Assembly (NCBI RefSeq): GCF_020037015.1
Contig: NZ_JAIQDE010000007.1
Location: forward strand, 243,886 to 307,885
Direction of reading: 5' to 3'
DNA: 64,000 bases
Origin: Corallococcus sp. AS-1-6
GTDB taxonomy: Bacteria; Myxococcota; Myxococcia; Myxococcales; Myxococcaceae
This document shows, piece by piece, positions 9,023 through 46,285 of this stretch. The position numbers were made by a program, and so were the translations under genes. Under the pieces are notes generated by a model. The model had not been told where the DNA came from. It saw only the letters and a program-made list of their open reading frames with translations, and did no database searches. Within the stretch, counting starts at the first letter, position 1; the number at the start of each line of letters is the position of its first letter.

Positions 9023-10933
9023 ATGCGTCTCCGTCACCTCGCGCCCCTCCTCCTGGGTCTCCTCGTCCTCGCCGGGGCCGGCTGTGAGCCCGCCCCCGAG
9101 CGGCGGCTGAACGAAGCCGAGCTCCCCCCGCCCTCCGGTCCACGTGTCACCCTCGACGGGCACGACCCGGACACGCACCGGCTGTTCGGCACGGTGTCGA
9201 GCGACGCCGGCGCCTCACGGGTGCAGGTGTTCGAGGACGGGCGCTTCCTGGGCCACGCCGACATCGACGGTGTCCGCTGGAGCCTGCCCTGGTGGCCGGG
9301 CCCGCGCGCGCTGGGGCTGGAGGTGGTGGCTCGCGACAGGCGGGGCTCCGAGGCGCGGGCCCGCGTCGACTTCCAGCACCTGACGTTCGACGCGCGGCCC
9401 GGGCTCTACCAGCCGGAGACGCTGCTGGCGTTGCCCACGGCCCGGGGGCTGCGGACGTACTTCACGCGGGACGGCTCCACGCCCACGCCCGCGTCGTCGC
9501 GCTACACCGCGCCCATCGCGCTGCTCGCGCGCTCCACGCCTCCGGCGCGGTGGTCCTTCGTCCCCACGACGCCGCTGGACGCGGTGGAGGCCTTGCGGTG
9601 GGTCGCGCCGCTGGAGGAGCCGCCCCAGGTCGCGGTGGTGCGCTACCGGCAGTTCGCGGGCGCGGAGCCGGCGGGCCCGGTCCGCACGCGCACGTTCGTC
9701 ATCGGCCGGGCGCCGTACTCGCTGCCGGTGCTGTCGCTCGTCACCGACGCGGCGAACTTCTTCGACCCGGCGAAGGGCATCTACGTCCCCGGCCTCCTCG
9801 CCGAGGCCCGGCCTGACGACCCATTCGCGGCCAACTACCTGCGGAACGGCAAGGAGTGGGAGCGGCCCGTCCACGTGGAGTGGTTCGAGACGTCCGGCGA
9901 GCGCGTGTTCGACCAGGACGCGGGCGTGCGCATCCACGGCACGGGCAGCGCGGTGATGCCGCAGAAGAGCCTGCGGCTGTACGCGAAGGAGGACTACGGC
10001 CCGAAGACGTTCGCGGGCCCGGTGTTCCCCGTCTCCCCGGTGACGGAGTTCACCCGGCTGCTGGTGCGCACGTCCGGACAGGACCAGGGCATCACCAAGC
10101 TGCGCGACTGCGTGCTGCAGGGCCTGCTGGCGGAGACGCGGCTCGCGCTCCAGGCCTGCCGTCCCACGCTCGTGTTCCTCAACGGCGAGTACTGGGGCTT
10201 GCACGAACTACGCGAGCGCCTGGACGAGTACTACCTGGCGTCGCACTACGGCGTGGACCGCAAGAAGGCCGTCATCCTGGAGGGCTCCGGGGTCCTGGAC
10301 GTGGGGGAGGAGGGGGACGAGCAGCCCTACCAGGAGCTCATCGACTACGTGGCGACGCACGACCTGGCGGTGCCGGAGCACTCCGCCTGGGTGCGCGCGC
10401 GCATGGACGTGGAGGACTTCATCGACTACCAGGTCGCGCAGCTCTACCTGGGCAACACGGACTGGCCGCACAACAACGTGAAGTTCTGGCGGCTGCGCAC
10501 GAAGGAGCCCGAGCCGGACGCGCCCCATGGACACGACGGCCGCTGGCGCTGGCTCGTGTACGACCTGGACGTCGCCCTGGTCCACGGCCCGGCCCAGGAC
10601 AGCCTGGGGCGCGTGCTGGACGGCACGTCGGACGTGGCGCCCTGGTCCACGCTGCTCTTGAGGGGGCTGCTCCAGTCGCCGGAGTTCAAGGCCCGCTTCG
10701 TCGAGCGCTTCCTCTGGCACGCCGAGCACACGTTCGCTCCGGAGCGGGTGACGGCGGCGCTGGACGCGGCGGTGGAGGCGCTCGAACTGGAGATGCCCGG
10801 CCAGGTGGCGCGCTGGAGCCAGCCGGCCTCCATGGCGGGGTGGCGCGCGAACCTCCTGGACCTGCGGGAGACGCTGCGTCAGCGGCCGGCGTTCATGCGC
10901 CGGCTGCTGGAGCAGTACCTGGGGCCTCAGTAG
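9023..10933 (+). CDS. CotH kinase-family lipoprotein
   Basis: The lipoprotein signal is LLGLLVLAGAGC. CotH-family signature stretches are FLNGEYWGLHELRE and YQVAQLYLGNTDWPHNNVKFWR. Confidence 0.8.
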   Translation: MRLRHLAPLLLGLLVLAGAGCEPAPERRLNEAELPPPSGPRVTLDGHDPDTHRLFGTVSSDAGASRVQVFEDGRFLGHADIDGVRWSLPWWPGPRALGLEVVARDRRGSEARARVDFQHLTFDARPGLYQPETLLALPTARGLRTYFTRDGSTPTPASSRYTAPIALLARSTPPARWSFVPTTPLDAVEALRWVAPLEEPPQVAVVRYRQFAGAEPAGPVRTRTFVIGRAPYSLPVLSLVTDAANFFDPAKGIYVPGLLAEARPDDPFAANYLRNGKEWERPVHVEWFETSGERVFDQDAGVRIHGTGSAVMPQKSLRLYAKEDYGPKTFAGPVFPVSPVTEFTRLLVRTSGQDQGITKLRDCVLQGLLAETRLALQACRPTLVFLNGEYWGLHELRERLDEYYLASHYGVDRKKAVILEGSGVLDVGEEGDEQPYQELIDYVATHDLAVPEHSAWVRARMDVEDFIDYQVAQLYLGNTDWPHNNVKFWRLRTKEPEPDAPHGHDGRWRWLVYDLDVALVHGPAQDSLGRVLDGTSDVAPWSTLLLRGLLQSPEFKARFVERFLWHAEHTFAPERVTAALDAAVEALELEMPGQVARWSQPASMAGWRANLLDLRETLRQRPAFMRRLLEQYLGPQ

Positions 10934-35829: not shown

Positions 35830-36660
35830 ATGAACACCGCGCCGCTCCGCTTCCAGCTCAGTCCCGTCATCGTCGTCTACATGCTCGTGGTCCACGGCCT
35901 GGCCGCGCTGGCGTTCATCCTGCCCTGGCCGCCGTACGCGCTGCCGGTGGCGCTGGCCGTGTACGTGTCCATTGGCCTGGGCACGACGGTGGGGCTGCAC
36001 CGGCTCTTGTGCCACCGCGCCTTCGCGTGCCCCCGCTGGGTGGAGTACGCGCTGGTGACGGTGGCCATGCTCACGGCGCAGGGCAGCCCGCTGCTCTGGG
36101 CCGCCAACCACCGGCTGCACCACGCGAAGGCGGACGCGGACGGGGACGTGCACTCGCCGGTGCGCGGCTTCTGGTACGCGCACATGGGGTGGATCCTCAA
36201 CGAGGCCTCCACGGAGGAGGACGGCTGGCGCACCTGGTGCCGCGACATGGCGGACGACGGCTACTACCACTGGCTCTTGCGCTACCGCATCGCGCCGCAG
36301 GTGCTGGCGGTGCTCTTCGTGGGGCTGACCTTCGGCTGGCGTACGGTGCCCGCGTACTTCTTCCTGCCCGTGGTGTGCTGGATGCAGAGCACCTACGCGG
36401 TGAACTCCGTGTGCCACGCCGCGTTCGGGCACCGCGACCACGACACGCGCGACCACAGCCGCAACGTGTGGTGGGTGAGCGTGCTCGCGCTGGGCGAGGG
36501 CTGGCACAACAACCACCACGCCTTCCCCGCGTCCGCGCGGCACGGCTGGGTGTGGTGGCAGTGGGACCCGGGCTGGCTCTTCATCCGGGCGCTCCAGGCG
36601 CTGGGGCTGGCGTGGGACGTGCGCCTGCCGTCCCGGCTCAGGTCAGGACCTGCGGCGTGA
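35830..36660 (+). CDS. membrane fatty-acid desaturase, stearoyl-CoA desaturase (SCD/Ole1/DesC)-like
   Basis: The three His boxes are HRLLCHR, NHRLHHAKADADGDVHSP and GEGWHNNHHAFPASARHG, the SCD-family pattern HRxxxH / HRxHH / HNxHH. Four TM segments are present. Confidence 0.85.
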   Translation: MNTAPLRFQLSPVIVVYMLVVHGLAALAFILPWPPYALPVALAVYVSIGLGTTVGLHRLLCHRAFACPRWVEYALVTVAMLTAQGSPLLWAANHRLHHAKADADGDVHSPVRGFWYAHMGWILNEASTEEDGWRTWCRDMADDGYYHWLLRYRIAPQVLAVLFVGLTFGWRTVPAYFFLPVVCWMQSTYAVNSVCHAAFGHRDHDTRDHSRNVWWVSVLALGEGWHNNHHAFPASARHGWVWWQWDPGWLFIRALQALGLAWDVRLPSRLRSGPAA

Positions 36661-38053
36661 GGCCCAGCGCGGGCATCCGCTCCGCGTCCCACGCCTCGAT
36701 GGCGTCCAGCCCCGCGATGTAGCGGCGCTCCGGGTTCTTCACCGGGTTGCGGATGCTGACGATCTCGGGCCCGGAGAAGAGGATGGTCTGCTTGTAGCGG
36801 GGCAGGTCGCTCATCATCAGCTTGGACGCGTAGTGCCGCGCGATGTTGGGCAGGCTGCCCAGCGTGCGGCACAGCCGCTGGAAGTGCTCCACCACCTCCG
36901 ACGCGTGCATCTGCTTGGGCCGGTGGCACAGCGTGTAGCCGTCGTAGTCGCGGCTGGTGGTGCCGGGCAGGAGCCGGTCCTCGGCCTTCAGTTCGCGGAA
37001 GAAGGGCGTCTCCGGATACGGGCACACGATGCCCAGGAACGTGACGGAGAAGTACTTCAGGTCCGCCAGGTAGTCCGGCAGCCGGTGCAGGTACTCGTTG
37101 GTGTCGCCGTCCGAGCCAACGATGAGCCCGAAGGACAGCAGGATGCCGGCGGAGAAGACGCGGCGGATGACGGCGTCCACCTCCGACAGCTTGTTCTGGC
37201 CCTTGTTCATCGCCTTGAGCGAGTCCGGGTTGAGCGACTCCAGGCCGGTGTAGACGTAGCGGCAGCCCGCCTTCGCCATCAGCTTCACCAGCGACTCGTC
37301 CTTGAGCACGTTGAAGGTGAGCGCGCAGCCCCACGTCTTCTTCAGGGGGATGAGCGCCTCGCACAGCGCGCGCAGGTACTTGGGCGAGCCGCCCAGGTTG
37401 TTGTCCAGGAAGACGAACGCGTCCCCCATCAGCCCCAGGAAGTTCGGGTTCCAGCGCATGCGCGTCTGGATTTCGTCGATGACCTCCGGGATGGGCCGGA
37501 AGCGGTAGCGCTCGTGGCCGGTGAGCACGCAGAAGTTGCACGTGAAGGGGCAGCCGCGCGACGCCTCGATGCCCGGCAGGCGCACCTTGTTGTGCGTGAA
37601 GTCGATGAGCTCGTAGCGGTACGGCCGGATGGCCGCGGCGCCCTGCGACGGCAGGCTGTAGCGGGGCTTGAGCTCACCCTTCTCGAAGTCCGCGATGAGC
37701 GCCGGCACGTTGGACTCCGGCTCCCCGGTGATGACCGCGTCGAAGTACTTCGCCGCGTCGTCCGGGAAGTGGCTCGCGTGCCGGCCTCCCGCCACCGTCG
37801 TCATTCCGCGCTGACGGAAGAGGGTGGAGAGCACCTTGGTGTGCTCGTAGTACGAGTGCAGGTACGAGAAGAAGACCAGGTCCCAGTGCCGGTCCAGCGG
37901 CAGGTCCGCCTCCTTCTCGTTGAAGATCTCCACCTCGGCGTGCTCCGGGCACAGGCCCGCGATGAGCTCCGGCACGGAGGACTGCATGATGGAGGGTTCC
38001 TTGATTCGCAGCCGGGTCGGATGGGTGTACGTGGCGATGATGGCGATGCGCAT
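36638..38053 (-). CDS. B12-binding-domain radical SAM enzyme
   Basis: The N-terminal B12-binding Rossmann start is MRIAIIATYTHP. The radical SAM cluster motif is GCPFTCNFC (CxxxCxxC). The start is ATG 38053. The ORF-track GTG at 38194 adds an implausible Arg/Pro-rich leader. The 3' end overlaps the desaturase 3' end by 23 bp. Confidence 0.85.
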   Translation of the reverse strand: MRIAIIATYTHPTRLRIKEPSIMQSSVPELIAGLCPEHAEVEIFNEKEADLPLDRHWDLVFFSYLHSYYEHTKVLSTLFRQRGMTTVAGGRHASHFPDDAAKYFDAVITGEPESNVPALIADFEKGELKPRYSLPSQGAAAIRPYRYELIDFTHNKVRLPGIEASRGCPFTCNFCVLTGHERYRFRPIPEVIDEIQTRMRWNPNFLGLMGDAFVFLDNNLGGSPKYLRALCEALIPLKKTWGCALTFNVLKDESLVKLMAKAGCRYVYTGLESLNPDSLKAMNKGQNKLSEVDAVIRRVFSAGILLSFGLIVGSDGDTNEYLHRLPDYLADLKYFSVTFLGIVCPYPETPFFRELKAEDRLLPGTTSRDYDGYTLCHRPKQMHASEVVEHFQRLCRTLGSLPNIARHYASKLMMSDLPRYKQTILFSGPEIVSIRNPVKNPERRYIAGLDAIEAWDAERMPALGLTPQVLT

Positions 38054-38274
38054 GCGAGCGGGCCCGGCGGCGCACGCGGCGGAAACGGGCGCGCGCGTTC
38101 GTGTTTTCACCTGCCGGACCGCGTCCCCCTTCGTCGGTGGAGGATCACCCGGAGTCCGGGCGGTGGCAAAGGATCTCCGTCGCGAACACCGCACGCTCCG
38201 CGTGTTTCCGGTGGCAGCGGACGACCCAGGAGGACCTATCTCGCGTGGGGGGCGTACTGATAGATCTTTGAAAC

Positions 38275-40062
38275 ATGGATACTTCTCCTTCGCCAGCCGC
38301 CCCGGGTTGGCCGTTTAAGCGTTACTTCTGGATTTCCATCGTGCTCGCGGTGGCGCTGGGCGCGACGGCGTTGCGCTCGGGGTTCATGCCGGATGACTTC
38401 ATCTGGCTGGGCGTCTGGGACAACATTCCGCCGCCCGCGCCGCTGGGCAACACGCACCTGGACGTGTACCGCACGGCCACCGGCATCCCGGAGCACACGC
38501 TGCGTCTGGCGGAGGTGGGCGTCTTCCCGTGGTGGGTGGAGCCCACCGTGCGCGTCGCGTTCTTCCGGCCCCTGGGCAGCCTGCTCTACGGACTGGACCA
38601 TGTGCTCTACAACCGCGTCGCCGTGGCCTACCAGTTCCACTCGCTGCTCTGGTACGTGGGCCTGGTGGCGGTGGCGGGCCTGCTGCTCAAGCGCGTGCTG
38701 CCCACGGCGGTGGCGGGCGTGGCGATGGTCCTCTTCGCCCTCTGGGGCTCCCACGCGGCGGTGCTGGGCTGGCTGTCCTACCGCAGCGTGGTGATGTCGC
38801 TGCTCTTCGGCATCCTCGGCATCTTCCTGCACGTGAAGTGGCGCGAGGAGAAGCGCACGGGCGCGCTGGTGGGCGCGCTGGTGTCCTTCGCGCTCGCGCT
38901 CCTCTGCGGTGAGACGATGGTCATCCTCAGCCCGTACGTGCTGGCCTACGAGGCCTTCTCCGGCCCGGGGCAGGCGAAGGACAAGCTCAAGGGGCTCATC
39001 CCGTTCGGCGTGCTGATGGCCCTCTACTTCGCGGCGTACCGGGCCATGGGCTACGGCGCGGGCGGCTCGGACATGTACCTGGACGCGCTGGGGACGCCGG
39101 TGGCGTGGTTCCAGGCGATGCTCGGGCGCGTGCCGGCCGCCATCGCGGGGCTGACGCTGAACGCACCGCCGGACTTCATCTTCGATCAATCCCTGGTGCC
39201 CCTCTTCACCGTCCTGGGCGCGGTGGGCTTCACGTTGTTCGCGCTGCTCGTGTGGGGCGTGTGGCCCCGGCTGGAGGCCGCGGAGAAGCGCACGGTGGGC
39301 TGGATGCTGACGGGCGCGTTCGTGTCCACGTGGCTGTCCAACTCCGCCTTCGCCGGCTCGCGCACGCTCATCGTGCCCAGCCTGGGCATGGCGGTGGGTT
39401 TGGCCGTGGTGCTGCGCCACGCGTGGAAGGGGCGGGCGCTCAAGCTCCGCGCGGGCGCGGTGGTGGCCGGCGCGGCGGTGATGGCCCTCATCCACGTCGT
39501 GGGCTCGCCGTACCTCTGGTGGCAGACCATGGAGCAGTACTCGCAGGCGGACGCGCTCATGGGGCGCGTGCAGGCGCGCTACGAGGAGGCGTTCGATCAG
39601 ACGAAGCTCCCCAACCAGCGCGTGGTGGTGCTCAACGCCCCCAACGGCATCATCGGCATCTACGGCTCCGTGCGCTGGTGGTCCTCGGGCAACCCCCTGC
39701 CGAAGGCCTGGTGGGTGCTGTCCTATTCGCTCCACGAGCAGAAGGTGACGCGCACCGGCCCCAACTCGCTGGAGCTGGCGCTCACCCGGGGCGGCCACTT
39801 CCTGGACTCCGTGGAGGAGCGCATCCACCGCGCCGCGCGCCACCCGGTGCGCCAGGGCGACGAGTTCGACATGAAGGGCATGAAGGTGCGGATCGAGGAG
39901 GCGGACGCGCAGGGCCCCACGCGCATCTCCTACACCTTCGACGTGCCGCTGGAGGACCCGTCGCTGAAGCTGGTCCAGTGGCAGAACAAGAAGGTGGTGC
40001 CCTGGGTGCCGCCGGCCGTGGGCGGGCCGCCGTCCGCCCTCAACGTCCGGGCCGTGCAGTAG
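38275..40062 (+). CDS. large polytopic membrane protein (about 12 TM) with C-terminal soluble domain; GT-C-like glycosyl/lipid transferase candidate
   Basis: The 595-aa ORF has many hydrophobic helices and an acidic first loop (FMPDDFIWLGVWDN). The C-terminal 170 aa or so are hydrophilic. Confidence 0.7.
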   Translation: MDTSPSPAAPGWPFKRYFWISIVLAVALGATALRSGFMPDDFIWLGVWDNIPPPAPLGNTHLDVYRTATGIPEHTLRLAEVGVFPWWVEPTVRVAFFRPLGSLLYGLDHVLYNRVAVAYQFHSLLWYVGLVAVAGLLLKRVLPTAVAGVAMVLFALWGSHAAVLGWLSYRSVVMSLLFGILGIFLHVKWREEKRTGALVGALVSFALALLCGETMVILSPYVLAYEAFSGPGQAKDKLKGLIPFGVLMALYFAAYRAMGYGAGGSDMYLDALGTPVAWFQAMLGRVPAAIAGLTLNAPPDFIFDQSLVPLFTVLGAVGFTLFALLVWGVWPRLEAAEKRTVGWMLTGAFVSTWLSNSAFAGSRTLIVPSLGMAVGLAVVLRHAWKGRALKLRAGAVVAGAAVMALIHVVGSPYLWWQTMEQYSQADALMGRVQARYEEAFDQTKLPNQRVVVLNAPNGIIGIYGSVRWWSSGNPLPKAWWVLSYSLHEQKVTRTGPNSLELALTRGGHFLDSVEERIHRAARHPVRQGDEFDMKGMKVRIEEADAQGPTRISYTFDVPLEDPSLKLVQWQNKKVVPWVPPAVGGPPSALNVRAVQ

Positions 40063-40108: not shown

Positions 40109-41134
40109 TCAGCCCACCATCCGCACCACCGCCAGCGTGAGTCCGTAGACGATGACGGACACCAGCGCGGCGGCGGGGATGGTGAACACCCACGCCCAGA
40201 TGATGCGGCCGGCGGTGCCCCACTTCACGGCCCGCCAGCCGCGCGTGGACCCCACGCCGACGATGGCGCCGGTGATGGTGTGCGTGGTGGAGACGGGGAT
40301 GCCCAGCTCCGCCAGCGCGATGATGGTGACGCCGCCGCCCGTCTCCGCGCTGAAGCCGCCAATGGGCGCCAGCTTCGTGAGGCTGTGGCCCATGGTGCGG
40401 ATGATGCGCCAGCCGCCGAAGAAGGTGCCCAGCGCGATGGCGGCGTGGCAGGAGATGATCATCCACCAGTCGATGTGGAACGGCCGGTCGCGCCAGATGG
40501 TGCCGAAGAGCACCACCGCGATGATGCCCATGACCTTCTGCGCGTCGTTGGTGCCGTGGCTGAAGGAGAAGATGGCGGACGACACCAACTGCAGCCGGCG
40601 GAACCAGGTGTCCACGCGCAGCGGCGTCTGACGGTGCACCGCCCAGGTGCTGGCCAGCATCATCCCGATGCCCAGCGTCATGCCGATGAGCGGCGACAGC
40701 ACGATGAAGGCCGCGATGCGCGCGATGCCGCTGCCCACCAGGCCCTCGAAGCCCAGCACGGGGAGCGTGGCGCCAATCATCCCGCCCGCCAGCGCGTGCG
40801 ACGACGACGAGGGCAGCCCCCACCACCAGGTGAGCAGGTTCCAGACGATGGCGCCCATCAGCGACGAGAAGATGACCATCAGCACCGCGGTGGGGCCGGC
40901 GGCGCGGAGCATCTCGAAGTTGATGATGCCCTTGCCCATGGTGTTGGCCACGTGCACGCCGCCCGCGAAGGCCGCCACGAAGTTGAAGAACGCGGCCCAC
41001 GCCACGGCCAGGTTCGGCGACAGCACGCGCGTGGACACCACGGTGGCGATGGAGTTCGCCGCGTCGTGGAAGCCGTTGATGAAATCGAAGATGAGCGCGA
41101 CGACGACGATGGTGACGACCGCTGCGAGCAGCAT
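40109..41134 (-). CDS. pitA: inorganic phosphate transporter, PiT family
   Basis: PiT signature blocks are FINGFHDAANSIATVVST and the repeat block FSHGTNDAQKVMGII. It has 10 or more TM segments. Confidence 0.9.
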   Translation of the reverse strand: MLLAAVVTIVVVALIFDFINGFHDAANSIATVVSTRVLSPNLAVAWAAFFNFVAAFAGGVHVANTMGKGIINFEMLRAAGPTAVLMVIFSSLMGAIVWNLLTWWWGLPSSSSHALAGGMIGATLPVLGFEGLVGSGIARIAAFIVLSPLIGMTLGIGMMLASTWAVHRQTPLRVDTWFRRLQLVSSAIFSFSHGTNDAQKVMGIIAVVLFGTIWRDRPFHIDWWMIISCHAAIALGTFFGGWRIIRTMGHSLTKLAPIGGFSAETGGGVTIIALAELGIPVSTTHTITGAIVGVGSTRGWRAVKWGTAGRIIWAWVFTIPAAALVSVIVYGLTLAVVRMVG

Positions 41135-41135
41135 C

Positions 41136-41762
41136 TCAGCTATGCTCCAGCACGACGCCTTCGATGACGTTGGCCACGCCCTGGCACTTGTCCGTGGCCG
41201 TCTCGATGAGGTCGTAGATCTCCTTCCACTTGATGATGGTCAGGGTGTCCACGCCGCTCTTGAACAGCCGGCCCATGCCCGCGCGCAGGACCTCGTCCGC
41301 CTGGGTCTCCAGGTGCTTGATCTCCTTGCACCCCGCGAGGATCTGCTCCGGCTTCTTGATGAGCCGCAGCGCCGCGACGACCTCCTGCACCTTGCGCGTG
41401 GAGAGCACCAGCAGCCGCGCCAGCTCCGTGGCGTCCTCGCGGCTGGACTCAATCTCGTAGTAGAGCAGCCGCGCCGCCGCCGCGTTGGTCAGGTCCAGCA
41501 CGTCGTCGATGCGCGACAGGAGCGTGTGGATCTGACCCCGGTCGAACGGGGTGATGAACTGCTGGTGGAGCCGGTTGAAGGCCGTGTGGGTGACCTCGTC
41601 GCCCCGGTGCTCCACGTCCTTGAGGGCCTGGACTCGCGCGGGCACGTCCCGGAAGTCGCTCAAGAGTTCGTGCAGGAGCTTCGCTCCCTCGACAGTTCTG
41701 GCGCATTGCGCGTCGAAGTCGTCGAAGAACTCGTCCGACTTCGGCATCAGCTTTTCGAGCAT
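41136..41762 (-). CDS. DUF47 / PhoU-like TIGR00153-family protein, the usual PiT partner
   Basis: It is a 208-aa helical protein. Its stop lies 1 bp from the PiT start. This gene pairing is widespread. Confidence 0.85.
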   Translation of the reverse strand: MLEKLMPKSDEFFDDFDAQCARTVEGAKLLHELLSDFRDVPARVQALKDVEHRGDEVTHTAFNRLHQQFITPFDRGQIHTLLSRIDDVLDLTNAAAARLLYYEIESSREDATELARLLVLSTRKVQEVVAALRLIKKPEQILAGCKEIKHLETQADEVLRAGMGRLFKSGVDTLTIIKWKEIYDLIETATDKCQGVANVIEGVVLEHS

Positions 41763-41836
41763 GGGGATCTCCCTCGGCGCCTGGAGGGACAGGAGCTGTC
41801 CGCCGCGGGAGGTGGGTGGCGCCTCTGGAGGGGTGA

Positions 41837-41857
41837 CACTCCCGTGACGCGGGAGTG
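41837..41857 (-). terminator. hairpin downstream of the CADD/TenA-like gene
   Basis: cactcccg-tgacg-cgggagtg forms a perfect 8-bp stem about 85 nt after the stop at 41941. Confidence 0.35.
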
Positions 41858-41940
41858 AGTACCCTACCTGGAGAGATTCGCCAGTGTTCCGTGCGAAAAC
41901 GTACGGATTCCGAGGGGTTGTGCTTGACGCGAGGCGCCGC

Positions 41941-42603
41941 TCAGACGACGCGGTTGCGCAGCTCCTCGAAGAATCCCACCCACAACTGCCACATCTCCTC
42001 GGCGCCGCGCGTGATGGTGGCCAGCTCCGCGTCCGTGTACTGGAGGCCCACCGTGTGGCCGGCCGTCTCCACGTGGTCCGGCTCCTGCTTCACGTGGATG
42101 TCCACCCAGGGCAGGGCCTTGAGGCCCGTGGTGCGGCGCACCAGCTTGCCCAGCTTGGCCACCATGGTGAGGTCCGCCACCTCCGTGCCGTAGAGGAAGC
42201 CCAGGCCCGTGAGGTGGCTGTCCGTGGAGCGCTGGTAACCGTCGATGAGCCGGCGCGTCGCGGGCGTCATGTCCGCCTCGGACACGCCCGCCTTCGTGAA
42301 GCCCGCGTCCGTCATCGTCTGGATGAAGAAGCGCTCGTGCGCCCTCGCCGGGTCTCCCTCGCCCACCTCCTGGTTGAGGATGTGCGTCACCGCCGTCTTC
42401 ATCTCCATCTGCGGACAGACGGCGATGAGCTTGCCCAGGAAGGTGGGGAAGTAGTGCAGGGGGTGCCACCACTGACCCAGCACCATCTCCGCCTGTTCGC
42501 GGCTGAAGGCCTTCTCATCCACCACCTCGAAGAACCGGTGCTTGATCAACTGCTCTCGGTGGGAGTTCTTCGCCAGTGCCGCCTCGATGGTCTGGTTCCG
42601 CAT
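41941..42603 (-). CDS. iron-containing redox enzyme of the haem-oxygenase-like fold (CADD/PqqC/TenA-like di-metal oxidase family)
   Basis: Two E...H metal-ligand blocks are ILNQEVGEGDPARAHERFF and VKQEPDHVETAGH. It has about 220 aa and an all-helical composition. GGAGG sits 5 nt upstream of the ATG. Confidence 0.8.
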   Translation of the reverse strand: MRNQTIEAALAKNSHREQLIKHRFFEVVDEKAFSREQAEMVLGQWWHPLHYFPTFLGKLIAVCPQMEMKTAVTHILNQEVGEGDPARAHERFFIQTMTDAGFTKAGVSEADMTPATRRLIDGYQRSTDSHLTGLGFLYGTEVADLTMVAKLGKLVRRTTGLKALPWVDIHVKQEPDHVETAGHTVGLQYTDAELATITRGAEEMWQLWVGFFEELRNRVV

Positions 42604-42822
42604 TGCCGCCTCCAGGTGGGTCCAAAAGGGCTGGGTCGGCGTTTATCACAAAGCAGGACTGAGATTCTTGGAAATGTAGAAAGACAAGTTCAACACGACT
42701 ACGTGGTTTGCCGTCAGTGTGGAACGTGCAGGCAGGCGAGGGTGGGCTGTTCGGCGTGGGGGCTGACAGCCTACAGTTGGAAAATCGGCATTTTCTCCCT
42801 GGCCCCCTTGTACGGAAGACGC

Positions 42823-43707
42823 ATGACCCTGTTCCGGCACCCTGAAGATCGCATCCCGGTCCTGATGTTCCTTGGCGTCTTCGCGCTCGACATGACGGTG
42901 TTCCTCACGGCGCGAAGCTGGTGGGTACCGGTGCTGTGGTTCGGGCTGGGCATCATCCCCAAGGGGTGGATCTGCTCGTGGAACCACCACCACCAGCACC
43001 TGTCCTTCTTCAAGCACGCGCTGCCCAACCGGCTCCTGGAGATCGTCTTCGGCTTCCAGACGGGCGTGACGTCGCAGGCGTGGTTCCTCCACCACGTGCT
43101 GGGCCACCACAAGAACTACCTGGACCAGTCGCAGGACGAGTCGCGCTGGAAGCGGGAGGACGGCTCGACGATGGGCGAGGTGGAGTACTCGCTGGGCACG
43201 GCGCTGACCGCCTACCCGCGCGCGTTCCAGGTGGGCCGGAAGCACCACCCCAAGGCGCTGCGCACGTTCGTGGTGATGGCCGCGCTCCAGGTGGTGCTGC
43301 TGGCGGGCCTGTTCTGGGTGAACCCCTACAACGCGCTCTTCGTGTTCCTGCTGCCCATGATGGCGTCGCTCTACGTGACGACCTGGGCCACGTACTTCCA
43401 CCACGTGGGCCTGGACACGGCGAACCACTCGGAGGCCTCGTACAACATCCTCCACAAGGGCTACAACCTGATGACGGGCAACCTGGGCTACCACACCGCG
43501 CATCACACGCGGCACGGCCTGCACTGGTCCAAGCTGCCGGAGCTGCACGCGCAGTTGGCGCGCGACATCCCCGCGAACCTGTACCGCCAGCCGGGCATCC
43601 CGTTCGTCTGGCGCGGCTCCGAGGAGAAGCTGGTGCTGAGCGAGCACGAGGTCGCCGCACTCACCGGCGGGCCCGTGGAGGGCCGCGGGGAGAAGCTGGC
43701 CGCCTAG
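42823..43707 (+). CDS. membrane fatty-acid desaturase / hydroxylase-family di-iron enzyme
   Basis: His boxes are WNHHHQH, HHVLGHH and HTAHHTRH, with a further FHHVG. Four TM segments are present. The start is ATG 42823. The 607-aa ORF in the track is artefactual upstream of this. Confidence 0.8.
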   Translation: MTLFRHPEDRIPVLMFLGVFALDMTVFLTARSWWVPVLWFGLGIIPKGWICSWNHHHQHLSFFKHALPNRLLEIVFGFQTGVTSQAWFLHHVLGHHKNYLDQSQDESRWKREDGSTMGEVEYSLGTALTAYPRAFQVGRKHHPKALRTFVVMAALQVVLLAGLFWVNPYNALFVFLLPMMASLYVTTWATYFHHVGLDTANHSEASYNILHKGYNLMTGNLGYHTAHHTRHGLHWSKLPELHAQLARDIPANLYRQPGIPFVWRGSEEKLVLSEHEVAALTGGPVEGRGEKLAA

Positions 43708-43736
43708 CGGTCCCGCCGTCCCCGCTGCAAGCCCCC

Positions 43737-43758
43737 GCCGGAAGCGCTCCCTTCCGGC
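43737..43758. terminator. bidirectional hairpin between convergent desaturase and M28 peptidase genes
   Basis: gccggaag-cgctcc-cttccggc forms a perfect 8-bp stem, flanked by C-run and G-run. Confidence 0.45.
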
Positions 43759-43777
43759 GGCGGGGTTCGACGGACGG

Positions 43778-45196
43778 CTACTTCGGCTGCTGCGGCTCCG
43801 TCGTGCGGTTCGCCGCGAGGCTGATGACGTTGAGGAGCAGGTCCTTCACGCGGCGGGGCTTGTTGCCGCCGTTGTCCTCGATGATCTTCTCGATGTCGTC
43901 ATCCTGCCGGTGGTACTCGGGGATGAGGTCGCCGCCGCCCTCGGGGTTGGACAGGCCCTCGAAGAGGAAGAGCACGTCCTCGCCCTTGCGCCCGAAGGAC
44001 GCGCCGTCCTGCCGGTCGCGGTAGACGTTGATGTCGCGGTTGATGCGGTCGAACGGATCCGCCAACTGCTGGTTCGCCTGGTCCACCACGTCGCGGAAGT
44101 AGTTGGGCTGGCCCTTGGTGTTGGTGTCCACCACGGACAGGCGCTGATCATCCCAGCGGCCCACCATGTCCGTGTTGATGACGCCGGCGATGTTCTTCAG
44201 CTCCAGGCCGGGGATGGGGTGGTCCACGAAGTACTGCGAGCCCACCAGGCCCTTCTCCTCCGCGCCCGTCCAGATGAAGAGCACGGAGCGGTCCAGCTTG
44301 CCGTTCTTCGCGGCCTCCGCCAGCTCCGGCACCGCCGCCATCAGCACCGCGCTGCCGGACGCGTTGTCGTCCGCGCCGTTGAACGGGTTGCCCTTGCGGT
44401 CCACGCCCACGTGGTCCAGGTGGGCCATCACCACGATGACCTCGTCCTTGTGGGGGCCCGTGCCGGGCAGCATGGCCATGGTGTTCACCGCCTGGCCCGT
44501 GGCCGTGGCCACCTGCTGGAGCTCCTCCACGCTGCGCTGCTTGCCCGCGCGCGCCGGCACCACCGACTGGCCCGCCGCCTTCATCGTCTGCTCGTACTGC
44601 TGGTTGAGCCGCTTCAGCGTGTCCTTGGGCATCTTCTCGTCCAGGTAGAAGCCCTCCTGGAAGAGCGTGTGGCCGAACTCCTTGTGCTCGGCGTGGGCTC
44701 CGGCCGTCTCGCCCGCCTTGTCCGCGCCCAGCCAGGAGTAGACCTTGAACTTCTGCTGGAAGGGGTTCTCCGGGTTGTTGATGTTGGGCCCCACCAGCCC
44801 GTACTTCTCCGCGTGGGCCTGCACGTAGACGGAAGCGGCGTCCAGGCCCGCGGAGGGGCTGTCACGCCCCTGCAGCGCGTCCGAGGCCAGGTACTCGAGG
44901 TGCGTCATCGGGTCCGAGTCGGCCGACACGGGCGGCTCGGTGGGCGCCTCCGGCGGCACGGGCGTCGTCGGCGCGGGCGTCGGGGTGGTGGGCGCGGGCA
45001 GCCCCAAAATCGGCGGCGGCGCGGGCAGCCGGGGCAGTTGGCCGGGCGCGGGGCGCGTGCCGCCGGAGGACTCGAAGCCGTCCTTCCAGGCGATGGGGCG
45101 GTTCCGGGACTTCGCCTCCGTCGTCCGGGCGTCCTGCGAGGACAGCCGCGAGACGGAGGTGAGGGGACGCGAGCTGTCGTTGATCTTCGAGGCCAT
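43778..45196 (-). CDS. M28-family metallo-aminopeptidase
   Basis: Zinc-ligand blocks are HLDHVG, GADDNASG and GAEEKGLVGSQ. An unusual N-terminal 95 aa or so is Pro/Thr-rich and low-complexity with no obvious signal peptide. An alternative start exists at MTHLEYLAS (44908). Confidence 0.8.
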   Translation of the reverse strand: MASKINDSSRPLTSVSRLSSQDARTTEAKSRNRPIAWKDGFESSGGTRPAPGQLPRLPAPPPILGLPAPTTPTPAPTTPVPPEAPTEPPVSADSDPMTHLEYLASDALQGRDSPSAGLDAASVYVQAHAEKYGLVGPNINNPENPFQQKFKVYSWLGADKAGETAGAHAEHKEFGHTLFQEGFYLDEKMPKDTLKRLNQQYEQTMKAAGQSVVPARAGKQRSVEELQQVATATGQAVNTMAMLPGTGPHKDEVIVVMAHLDHVGVDRKGNPFNGADDNASGSAVLMAAVPELAEAAKNGKLDRSVLFIWTGAEEKGLVGSQYFVDHPIPGLELKNIAGVINTDMVGRWDDQRLSVVDTNTKGQPNYFRDVVDQANQQLADPFDRINRDINVYRDRQDGASFGRKGEDVLFLFEGLSNPEGGGDLIPEYHRQDDDIEKIIEDNGGNKPRRVKDLLLNVISLAANRTTEPQQPK

Positions 45197-45472
45197 GGTG
45201 GGGAGTCCGGGGGGAGGAACCGCGCTCCCCAGATTATCCGCCGGACCCCCCGCGGAGTTGTGCCCCCCGGCGAAGTTCCGCCTGGGAGTGCGGCGCCATG
45301 ACGCTCCGTGTGAGACCCGGCTTGCTACAAATCACATGTTTCATGTGACATCCGGCGCTACCCTGTTTTCTCAATCATTGAACAACGTGACTGAAGACAG
45401 ACGGACCTGGGGTGTTGGCGCGCGGGGTGCAGTGGGGACGGGGGCAGTCCACCCCACACGACGAGGTAGTAC

Positions 45473-46285
45473 ATGCATCTGAGAATCACGGGTTCCCTGC
45501 TGGCGTCCATGCTGTTGAGCATCACGGGCTGCGCGGGCGGCGCCGACGACGGCCAGGCCGGCTCCCTGGGCGCGCAGGAGGCCGCGGCGTCCCAGTGCGT
45601 GAAGCGGTTCGACGGCATCACGAGCTGCGCGCTGGGCCGCGCGAAGGTGGAGTCCGTCGCGGAGGGGCTGGCGGTGTCCAACCTCACGACGCAGAAGGAC
45701 GGCGTCTCCAGCAGCTTCACGCAGGCCGTGAAGTGGGAGCAGCGCGTGGCGATGAGCCTGGGGGCGCAGGGCGGCTACCAGTTGGCCGCGCGCGATGGCG
45801 ATCAGGTCGTCAGCACGCTGCGGGTGACGCCGGGCCGCGAGGCGAACACGGTCAACATGGCCCCCACGTTCACGGGCTCGCCGGGCGGCTCCGCGTACCG
45901 GATGAACATCTACCGCGGGGGCGTGCTCCAGGGCAGCAGCAGCCAGCCCGCCGGGATGGTCATCACCTTCACCAACTGGCGGGACTTCATCCGCTGGGCG
46001 GAGATGAACCACTTCTTCCTGAACGACTTCGACATCGACGGGCTGTCCACCGGCTCCGCGGAGACGAACGTGGGCGCGTGCGTGTGGCGCTTGAACGCGG
46101 AGAAGAACACCTTCACCGTGGACATCGACGGCAAGTCCATCACCGGTGACTCGGTGGAGTTCATCGAGACCGTCGCGGATGGCGCGTACCCGTACCGCCA
46201 CTTCACGGGCATCGACACGAACGCCATCGCCGGCCAGTACACCGTCCGCTCCGAGTCCATCACCCAGCCCACGGGCGTGAAGTAG
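45473..46285 (+). CDS. lipoprotein, function unknown
   Basis: The lipobox is LLSITGCAGG. GAGG sits 7 nt upstream of the ATG. Length is 270 aa. Confidence 0.65.
   Translation: MHLRITGSLLASMLLSITGCAGGADDGQAGSLGAQEAAASQCVKRFDGITSCALGRAKVESVAEGLAVSNLTTQKDGVSSSFTQAVKWEQRVAMSLGAQGGYQLAARDGDQVVSTLRVTPGREANTVNMAPTFTGSPGGSAYRMNIYRGGVLQGSSSQPAGMVITFTNWRDFIRWAEMNHFFLNDFDIDGLSTGSAETNVGACVWRLNAEKNTFTVDIDGKSITGDSVEFIETVADGAYPYRHFTGIDTNAIAGQYTVRSESITQPTGVK

Follow-up and report, generated by a model that had tools for sequence, protein, structure and literature searches.

Two genes facing away from each other lie at the centre of the locus described here, which was analysed in a window of 64,000 nucleotides (the whole stretch of DNA, from Corallococcus sp. 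AS-1-6). The reverse-strand gene encodes a soluble protein, hereafter HDO, and the forward-strand gene a membrane protein, hereafter DES. The genes and features of the locus are the following.

40109-41134, minus strand: PiT/PHO4 phosphate transporter (PF01384), downstream of HDO and co-directional with it
41136-41762, minus strand: PhoU_div (DUF47; PF01865), downstream of HDO and co-directional with it
41941-42603, minus strand: HDO, a 220-aa soluble haem-oxygenase-like dimetal oxidase, probably di-iron (PF14518, ligands and fold)
42604-42822, no strand: divergent intergenic region of 219 bp, which must hold the promoters of HDO and DES
42823-43707, plus strand: DES, a 294-aa integral-membrane, predicted di-iron enzyme of the FA_desaturase superfamily (PF00487, His boxes and fold)
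43732-43764, no strand: GC-rich hairpin in the gap that separates DES from the convergent M28-peptidase gene (RNA fold)

The initial annotation had proposed a haem-oxygenase-fold oxidase and a desaturase-like membrane enzyme, transcribed divergently from a shared 219-bp region. Both family assignments are confirmed, by the PF14518 and PF00487 matches, by a full six-ligand site in the soluble protein and by three His boxes in the membrane protein; the divergent layout and the length of the spacer are borne out as well. HDO and DES are both new members of known families.

The soluble haem-oxygenase-like protein

The 220-aa ORF of HDO holds QEVGEGDPARAHERF and QEPDHVETAGH. It matches PF14518 (Haem_oxygenas_2) with an E-value of 1.1e-27 (97.4 bits for a cut-off of 28.9), over positions 3-176 of the 177 of the profile. 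The predicted ligands E79, H89, E141, H170, E174 and H177 are invariant among 21 homologues, down to 48% identity, and so are E82, E90 and D144. Three His and three carboxylate primary ligands carried by core helices define the HDO enzymes (PMC13108848). This 3His/3carboxylate set is complete in the Corallococcus protein and aligns with the E/H, E and H-x3-E-x2-H positions of BesC. Its AF2 model (pLDDT 80.5, pTM 0.81) consists of helices throughout and has the seven-helix haem-oxygenase fold, with Foldseek probabilities of 1.00 and TM values of 0.65-0.75 against BesC, CADD, PolF, UndA and HrmI. Comparison with orthologues shows purifying selection (dN/dS 0.05-0.37). HDO most likely holds a dimetal centre that serves for O2 activation.

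Loss of the metal site together with a grouping with the thiaminase TenA had been named as an observation that would speak against this assignment. Neither is seen. The six ligands are intact, PF03070 (TENA_THI-4/PqqC) gives no match at E <= 0.01, and TenA structures rank under BesC, CADD and PolF as fold matches; a TenA identity was therefore ruled out. The names 'TenA family transcriptional regulator' and 'PqqC' in the source annotations are automatic.

The enzymes nearest to HDO are BesC, CADD and PolF, rather than TenA or UndA. BesC, the 4-chloro-allylglycine synthase of Streptomyces cattleya (PDB 7TWA), is its best sequence match (profile E 2.8e-9) and its best fold match (TM 0.75, followed by CADD and PolF at 0.73). 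The two proteins share the E...H / E / H-x3-E-x2-H ligand pattern and a similar size, and BesC takes part in the biosynthesis of an amino-acid natural product. However, identity is only ~21% and the substrate-pocket residues are not conserved. Moreover, the BesC pathway has no NRPS and its substrate is free 4-Cl-lysine, whereas the HDO clade adjoins NRPS genes. PolF (PDB 9J3V, 9PRR), the HDO that forms an azetidine in the polyoxin pathway, turns an aliphatic amino acid into a cyclic imino acid for a peptide-type natural product. It resembles HDO in fold (TM ~0.73) but its sequence similarity is insignificant (E ~0.27). In one subclade of HDO-linked NRPSs, the first A-domain code, DVQFIAQLA, is proline-like, the codes having been read against a GrsA reference. 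From these A-domain codes alone, we infer that the HDO clade may have a tie to cyclic imino acids. LynB7/BarH, which belongs to an NRPS cluster and is termed a 'non-haem di-iron oxygenase', was also considered as a model for HDO and was rejected, as it has an amidohydrolase fold and is a relative of PtmU3.

The resemblance to CADD raises the question of whether HDO could be a self-sacrificing p-aminobenzoate (pABA) synthase of the CADD/PabS type, supplying folate or a pABA starter unit. The sole NCBIfam match of HDO is indeed TIGR04305 (CADD), and NePabS (9pj4, E 5e-7) and CtCADD (E 6e-5) are among its PDB profile matches. Fold (TM 0.73 for CADD), 3His/3carboxylate site and length are also alike in HDO and these synthases (PDB 1RCW, 8VA9, 9PJ4). 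Nevertheless, the TIGR04305 score of 44.6 bits falls short of the cut-off of 200, and BesC matches HDO better both by sequence and by fold. The context differs too, being folate for CADD/PabS and NRPS for the HDO clade. In CtCADD, Tyr27 is the sacrificial residue that is turned into pABA and Lys152 is the amine donor (PMC13108848). The 'HTFY27' of CtCADD aligns with 'HRFF25' of HDO, so that the sacrificial tyrosine is replaced by Phe25, a residue invariant across the HDO clade; the HMMER alignment of the two proteins ends at residue 139, before the equivalent of Lys152. With a phenylalanine at this position, a pABA synthase activity is scarcely credible.

The membrane desaturase-family protein

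The start ATG of DES is conserved in all Corallococcus orthologues and the N-terminus agrees with the MTLFRHPEDRIP of its homologues. The protein contains the motifs HHHQH, HHVLGHH and HTAHHTRH and matches PF00487 (FA_desaturase) with an E-value of 1.7e-29 (103.8 bits for a cut-off of 29.7). Its three His boxes, H55-H57-H59, H90-H91-H95-H96 and H224-H227-H228, follow the FADS pattern HX3-4H, HX2-3HH, HX2-3HH and are invariant among 19 homologues, down to 54% identity; histidines H193, H194 and H234 are invariant in the same set. In the AF2 model (pLDDT 89.6), long helices span residues 7-29, 34-56, 119-141, 143-166 and 168-194, and the model together with its fold matches describes a core of transmembrane helices, capped on the cytosolic side by a His-rich region. 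AlkB (8sbb) is the best fold match (TM 0.54) and SCD1 a weaker one. Both have a histidine-only di-iron site, as predicted for DES. However, DES, with its 294 residues, is shorter than either, and a rubredoxin or cytochrome b5 partner gene is absent from its vicinity. A PDB sequence search with DES found no significant relative in any chain, and an NCBIfam search gave no match at E <= 0.01 and no equivalog. Another desaturase of the window, at 35830-36660, has a weak DesA_fam match.

UndA, a soluble HDO, and UndB, a membrane enzyme of the FADS type, are fatty-acid decarboxylases giving 1-alkenes, and they are alternatives to each other rather than paired enzymes. They belong to the same two superfamilies as HDO and DES, and an analogy had been drawn on this basis. 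It does not hold. UndA is absent from the PDB profile matches of HDO even at E <= 10, and its fold match (TM 0.65, rmsd 6.6 Å) is poorer than those of the amino-acid HDOs. When the DES family profile was compared by hhalign with UndB of Pseudomonas mendocina (sequence taken from the SI of PMC12746148), the alignment was limited to 50 columns in the area of His boxes 1-2, with a probability of 0.07% and an E-value of 0.72. By this profile comparison, DES is not UndB-like and the two are unrelated past the superfamily level.

The genomic neighbourhoods of DES were sampled at 83 loci. Clustering of the ORFs within 4 kb revealed no conserved partner at these loci, the commonest neighbour occurring at 6 of the 83, in closely related contigs. 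In Myxococcus and Pyxidicoccus, DES is the last gene of a LOX-LOX-P450-DES cluster, in which the P450 and DES genes overlap by 4 nt (L004, L089 and L093); outside this cluster, it stands alone. In Myxococcus xanthus (lipoxygenases MXAN_1745 and MXAN_1744, P450, desaturase), the desaturase is a 72-74% identical orthologue that shares the His boxes of DES. Its translation is coupled to that of the P450, whereas Corallococcus DES stands alone beside HDO. The two lipoxygenases upstream in the M. xanthus cluster are characterised arachidonate lipoxygenases (PMC5760719). The desaturase gene itself would be MXAN_1742, a locus tag for which a literature search returned no paper on the desaturase. This coupling, downstream of two lipoxygenases, suggests that the DES orthologue acts in fatty-acid or oxylipin chemistry.

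Gene neighbourhoods, spacer and transcription units

Relatives of HDO form a clade of more than 1000 proteins, distributed among Acidobacteriota, Eisenbacteria, Cyanobacteria, Gamma- and Betaproteobacteria and Myxococcota. Neighbourhoods were compared at 80 genome loci, 9 in Corallococcus and 71 elsewhere. An NRPS is found in the flank at 64 of the 71 non-Corallococcus loci, within 500 bp in 48 cases, and is as often co-directional with the HDO gene (30 loci) as divergent from it (30 loci). As a rule, it is the beginning of the NRPS gene that the HDO gene adjoins. The Dyella orthologue (L072) belongs to a compact cluster with the domain order C-A-T-C-A-T-TE. Outside Corallococcus, three loci with full flanks have no NRPS (L017, L027 and L079). 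In many of the HDO-linked NRPSs, the first domain is of the starter C or the FAAL-like type. The A-domain specificity codes are clade-specific and none was found to be common to all HDO-linked NRPSs, so that the HDO substrate may be either an amino acid or an acyl chain.

DES adjoins HDO at 8 of the 8 Corallococcus loci with enough flank, out of nine in all (L008, L010-L016). Elsewhere, it lies beside none of the 71 HDO genes, including those of Citreicoccus (L017) and Pyxidicoccus (L018), and HDO is found at none of the 83 DES loci. In Citreicoccus, the nearest outgroup, whose HDO is 87% identical, the gene order shared with Corallococcus ends precisely between HDO and DES: HDO is kept and a flavoprotein/allantoinase region occupies the place where DES would be. 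Within Corallococcus, the whole block of ~10 kb around the pair is syntenic, and the conservation of the pair in this genus therefore carries no extra signal. HDO and DES, neighbours in Corallococcus only, do not form a conserved module; they are probably two independent genes, and the locus is an ordinary one. The two-step lipid- or hydrocarbon-tailoring module suggested at the outset is not co-conserved and was thus abandoned.

Restricted to Corallococcus, such a module would have the two enzymes share a bidirectional promoter and act serially on one lipid, for instance by desaturation or hydroxylation and then oxidative C-C cleavage, with an olefin as product. By family, both proteins are di-iron enzymes that depend on O2, eight Corallococcus species keep the divergent pair together with its spacer of ~219 bp, and the starter C or FAAL-like domains at the head of many HDO-linked NRPSs suggest that the HDO clade may see acyl chains. 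But the distribution of the two genes outside the genus, the Citreicoccus arrangement and the synteny of the whole block argue against serial action, as do the proximity of HDO to the amino-acid enzymes BesC and PolF rather than to UndA and the distance between DES and UndB. We regard it as very unlikely. A more recent association may also be imagined, in which an HDO detached from its NRPS pathway and DES would have been recruited, via the divergent promoter region conserved in Corallococcus, into a lineage-specific joint lipid-tailoring step. Possibly, this would be the oxidative modification of a desaturated acyl chain, such as the lipid tail of a lipopeptide. If true, it would represent a newly born two-enzyme di-iron pathway that is not described anywhere; such a recruitment is extremely unlikely.

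The spacer had been described as conspicuously AT-rich. Its GC content, ~55%, is below the ~65-70% of the flanks, but this is nothing special: other intergenic stretches of the window dip similarly (57.5% GC at 45300-45499, 61.5% at 38200-38399), so that a normal intergenic signature of a high-GC genome is sufficient to account for it. A consensus scan of 41700-43900 matched neither a sigma-70-like promoter nor an intrinsic terminator, an Rfam search of the same interval found no family and one chance sub-threshold snoRNA match, and a repeat search of the spacer gave a single, uninformative 9-nt imperfect inverted repeat. The spacer is conserved within Corallococcus, with an insertion of ~115 bp in C. 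llansteffanensis (L011), and as such does not exist outside the genus. HDO and DES may be co-regulated within the genus, the divergent arrangement and the spacer being present in every Corallococcus species examined. On the other side of DES, the region 43690-43800 has a folding energy of -59.9 kcal/mol (z -2.3) and a perfect 10-bp core stem. The hairpin at 43732-43764 lacks a U-tract, for which reason it was missed by the terminator consensus scan. It is likely to stop transcription from both sides, in which case DES would be monocistronic.

Downstream of HDO, the co-directional PhoU_div and PiT genes are the only neighbours that stay with it in both Corallococcus and Citreicoccus (L008-L017), while both flanks of this group of three differ between the genera. 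Together with the absence of a canonical intrinsic terminator from the 179-bp gap that follows the HDO stop codon, this arrangement could suggest an HDO-PhoU_div-PiT operon, with HDO as first gene and a role in phosphate uptake or homeostasis. However, the gap is long (157-179 bp) and contains stable hairpins (~41837-41857, z -3.1), PhoU_div or PiT is near none of the other HDO loci, and no chemistry ties HDO to phosphate transport. In addition, PhoU_div-PiT is a self-sufficient and widespread gene pair, encoding a Pit accessory protein and PitA. A phosphate-related role of HDO is thus quite unlikely.

Proposed roles of the two enzymes

Considering these data, it is probable that the locus combines a functionally independent HDO, detached from an NRPS pathway, with a stand-alone lipid desaturase or hydroxylase, DES, the two being adjacent by virtue of Corallococcus gene order. 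In this proposal, HDO would bind two Fe(II) ions via E79/H89, E141 and H170/E174/H177, and would then activate O2 in order to oxidise an amino-acid-derived or acyl building block, or an intermediate, of a nonribosomal (lipo)peptide. Free amino acids are oxidised in this way by BesC, PolF and HrmI. In Corallococcus and Citreicoccus, the HDO gene would have been split from any NRPS, to lie now upstream of PhoU_div-PiT, and its product would probably act in trans.

The best candidate partner is an MFS-NRPS cluster found at another genomic location in C. coralloides, at 7,026,764-7,038,320 of CP034669.1, because the orthologous cluster of Pyxidicoccus has HDO immediately upstream, in the order HDO-MFS-NRPS. 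The C. coralloides cluster comprises an EntS-type MFS and a three-module NRPS: a 411-aa MFS, 71% identical to that of Pyxidicoccus, immediately precedes a 3435-aa NRPS, for which the identity is 58%. The A-domain codes of the two NRPSs differ and, therefore, the two clusters need not share their product. Among the myxobacterial NRPSs compared, only the Corallococcus cluster shows MFS synteny with that of Pyxidicoccus, and the trans partnership is proposed from this one case of synteny. The Archangium and Myxococcus NRPSs most like that of Pyxidicoccus were discarded as candidates. They belong to different clusters, which carry LysW/LysX and a gene of the ornithine-cyclodeaminase family but neither MFS_3 nor HDO. 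As for DES, it would desaturate or hydroxylate the acyl chain of a lipid; about nine histidines would hold its two irons, and the electrons would come from an external donor.

Since the paired module was not upheld, no new type of pathway is implied by the locus. Each family nevertheless has its own interest. The LOX-LOX-P450-desaturase operon of Myxococcus and Pyxidicoccus is a testable lead as to what the desaturase does in the oxylipin chemistry of bacteria. With respect to HDO, chemistry is known for about a dozen of the ~20,000 predicted members of the superfamily (PMC13108848, PMC13185094). An uncharacterised and phylogenetically broad clade with a consistent link to NRPSs is a reasonable target for the study of function, possibly as the source of a new non-proteinogenic building block.

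Two divergent oxidase genes and their surroundings

The window has a high GC content and is of myxobacterial origin; in a genome scan it is 100% identical to Corallococcus coralloides KYC2213. The features discussed below are the following.

35830-36660, forward strand: second membrane desaturase, 276 aa, weak DesA_fam match
36638-38194, reverse strand: B12-binding radical-SAM enzyme, convergent with the second desaturase (23-bp overlap)
38275-40062, forward strand: multi-pass membrane protein, 595 aa, no Pfam family
40109-41134, reverse strand: PiT gene
41136-41762, reverse strand: PhoU_div gene
41941-42603, reverse strand: HDO, haem-oxygenase-like dimetal oxidase, 220 aa, containing QEVGEGDPARAHERF and QEPDHVETAGH
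42823-43707, forward strand: DES, desaturase-family membrane protein, 294 aa, N-terminus MTLFRHPEDRIP, its ATG (42823) lying within a long frame (41884-43707)
43732-43764: GC-rich perfect hairpin between the convergent DES and M28-peptidase genes, with a strong fold and no U-tract

The initial annotation described a soluble oxidase with E...H blocks, encoded divergently from a membrane protein with three histidine boxes, and both the reading frames and Pfam agree with this description. HDO matches PF14518 (Haem_oxygenas_2, E 1.1e-27) and DES, with the boxes HHHQH, HHVLGHH and HTAHHTRH, matches PF00487 (FA_desaturase, E 1.7e-29), both far above the gathering threshold. The DES start at 42823 is kept in all Corallococcus orthologues and agrees with the N-termini of homologues.

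The HDO-DES spacer (42604-42822, 219 bp) had been singled out as conspicuously AT-rich. Its GC content is indeed about 55%, versus 65-70% nearby, but this is unremarkable since other intergenic stretches of the window show comparable dips. In this spacer, a consensus promoter scan gave no match, an Rfam search no family and a repeat search nothing notable. The Corallococcus alignment contains short blocks invariant in the genus, CGTTTATCACAA..GCAGGACTG.GATTCTTGGAA and TACAGT.GGAAAATCGGCA, which may be regulator-binding sites. In C. llansteffanensis (locus L011, about 9660-10000), the spacer is enlarged, as compared to the other species, by about 115 bp of inserted sequence. The same wider spacing is seen in Corallococcus sp. 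CA053C (L015), as deduced from tblastn coordinates.

DES is likely monocistronic, because it is followed by the 43732-43764 hairpin, ahead of the convergent M28 peptidase gene. This hairpin is absent from the calls of the consensus terminator scan. On the 3′ side of HDO, a 179-bp gap with hairpins, in which the consensus scan found no canonical terminator, is followed by PhoU_div and PiT, and HDO may be co-transcribed with these two genes.

Family assignment of HDO and DES

Haem-oxygenase-like dimetal oxidases use a 3His/3carboxylate ligand set (PMC13108848). In 21 HDO homologues (at least 48% identity), E79, E82, H89, E90, E141, D144, H170, E174 and H177 are invariant, and these residues include the canonical six-ligand set E...H / E / H-x3-E-x2-H. 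Against the PDB, the HDO-clade profile retrieves BesC (E 2.8e-9), NePabS (5e-7) and CtCADD (6e-5). In the AlphaFold model (pLDDT 80.5), the predicted fold is closest to BesC (TM 0.75), followed by a CADD-like protein, CtCADD and PolF (about 0.73); UndA (TM 0.65), haem oxygenases and TenA rank below. Since the ligands are invariant and the Pfam search gave no match to PF03070 (TenA/PqqC), HDO keeps its predicted metal site and does not group with TenA, contrary to what would have refuted the initial annotation. A function as CADD-type pABA synthase was also considered and rejected: HDO scores 44.6 bits with the CADD model of NCBIfam, for which the cut-off is 200, and Phe25, invariant in the clade, aligns with the sacrificial Tyr27. 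Pairwise dN/dS values of HDO against eight orthologues are 0.05-0.37, and therefore indicate purifying selection.

In DES, all histidines of the boxes, together with H193, H194 and H234, are invariant in 19 homologues (at least 54% identity). The closest fold to its AlphaFold model (pLDDT 89.6) is that of AlkB (TM 0.54), SCD1 being a weaker match. The analogy with UndB did not survive comparison with the Pseudomonas mendocina enzyme (sequence from the SI of PMC12746148), to which the DES family profile aligns with an hhalign probability of 0.07%. Because of this value, and because no relative was found among PDB chain sequences and no family match in NCBIfam, DES is placed, on sequence comparison, in a FADS subfamily that is uncharacterised and distinct from the UndB type.

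Conservation of the gene pair

HDO and DES had been proposed to form a paired oxidative module for lipids or olefins, by analogy with UndA and UndB. According to homologue lists, DES orthologues (70-94% identical) occur across Myxococcaceae, in Myxococcus, Pyxidicoccus, Cystobacter, Archangium and Hyalangium, and close relatives of HDO are confined to Corallococcus, Citreicoccus and a single clade of Pyxidicoccus, the next being those of Acidobacteriota, at about 55% identity. A scan with the HDO alignment, using one genome per species, gave 80 loci with flanks of up to 10 kb on each side, which were compared with the window proteins by tblastn. Corallococcus is the one genus in which DES adjoins HDO (L008 and L010-L016; the L009 contig stops at HDO), within a syntenic block comprising a lipoprotein, the M28 peptidase, DES, HDO, PhoU_div, PiT, the 595-aa membrane protein, the B12-radical-SAM enzyme and the second desaturase. 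DES is found at none of the 71 other HDO loci. Conversely, an HDO homologue is present at 0 of 83 DES loci (80 from metagenomes, plus M. xanthus, Cystobacter fuscus and Pyxidicoccus parkwayensis). Thus, the two genes are not co-conserved, an outcome named beforehand as refuting the proposal. They are genuine genes for predicted di-iron oxidases, most probably independent of each other, and the "module" would be an accident of gene order in Corallococcus.

In Citreicoccus inhibens (HDO 87% identical), only HDO-PhoU_div-PiT is shared with Corallococcus (L017 8290-12470; window 40109-42603), and both flanks differ. Upstream, HDO is divergent from an ORF for a 481-aa flavoprotein-like protein, beyond which lie genes of the allantoinase region; a desaturase gene is missing from the 10 kb around HDO. 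The 35830-40062 trio (second desaturase, radical-SAM enzyme and 595-aa protein) keeps its gene order in all Corallococcus loci but does not occur at the locus of Citreicoccus. The best NCBIfam matches of the radical-SAM enzyme, all sub-threshold, are 'lipid biosynthesis B12-binding/radical SAM protein' (TIGR04072), BchE and HpnJ, and the trio may be a separate lipid-modification group.

In M. xanthus, P. parkwayensis and one metagenome contig (L004 2247-8846; L089 2379-8867; L093), DES is the last gene of a lipoxygenase/PLAT-lipoxygenase/P450/desaturase cluster, where the P450 stop and the DES start overlap by 4 nt. The two lipoxygenases of M. xanthus, MXAN_1745 (12-LOX) and MXAN_1744 (11-LOX), have been characterised (PMC5760719); the P450 and the desaturase of the cluster are uncharacterised. 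DES loci outside this cluster have no conserved neighbour.

A probable nonribosomal peptide context for HDO

NRPS sequence flanks HDO at 64 of the 71 non-Corallococcus loci, within 500 bp in 48; it is co-directional downstream of HDO in 30 cases and divergent upstream in 30. These loci belong to Thermoanaerobaculia, Terriglobia/Angelobacter, Holophagales, Blastocatellia, Eisenbacteria, Microcoleus, Dyella, Rudaea, Paraburkholderia, Kofleriaceae and Polyangiaceae. The NRPS-linked clade, with HDO at the head of the NRPS genes, spans at least six phyla. For instance, the gene table of a Thermoanaerobaculia locus has a 6311-aa FAAL-initiated NRPS divergent from HDO. A compact Dyella tabacisoli cluster (L072 4554-19603) encodes a DegT aminotransferase, a sulfotransferase, an SDR, a methyltransferase, HDO, an NRPS (C-A-T-C-A-T-TE) and an AMP-ligase. 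In Pyxidicoccus caerfyrddinensis (HDO 81% identical), HDO is followed by a 411-aa MFS protein and NRPS genes of 2105 and 1410 aa. On these neighbourhood statistics, HDO probably assists, as an accessory enzyme, in the biosynthesis of nonribosomal (lipo)peptides.

In C. coralloides, a cluster orthologous by synteny to that of P. caerfyrddinensis lies elsewhere in the genome, without HDO (L170 8752-20308, CP034669.1). A 411-aa EntS-type MFS_3 protein (71% identical to the Pyxidicoccus MFS) precedes a 3435-aa three-module NRPS (58% identical to the Pyxidicoccus NRPS). A TonB-dependent receptor gene is located about 7 kb upstream. This cluster is the best candidate for a trans partner of HDO. The link is weak, because the A-domain codes of the C. 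coralloides and Pyxidicoccus NRPSs differ, and because similar Archangium and Myxococcus NRPSs belong to other cluster types without HDO.

The substrate of HDO may be an amino acid or the acyl starter. Among characterised proteins, those closest to HDO are BesC, PolF and HrmI, whose substrates are free amino acids. A-domain codes were extracted with a GrsA reference. All clusters from Dyella, Rudaea, Paraburkholderia, Kofleriaceae and Pyxidicoccus have a proline-like code (DVQFIAQLA) in the first A domain; a code common to all HDO-linked NRPS clades was not found. By analogy with PolF, an amino-acid substrate would perhaps be a cyclic imino-acid precursor.

A literature search found no paper describing the NRPS-linked HDO clade. 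HDO and DES are both new, uncharacterised members of known superfamilies, and modest leads come from this clade and from the LOX-P450-desaturase operon.
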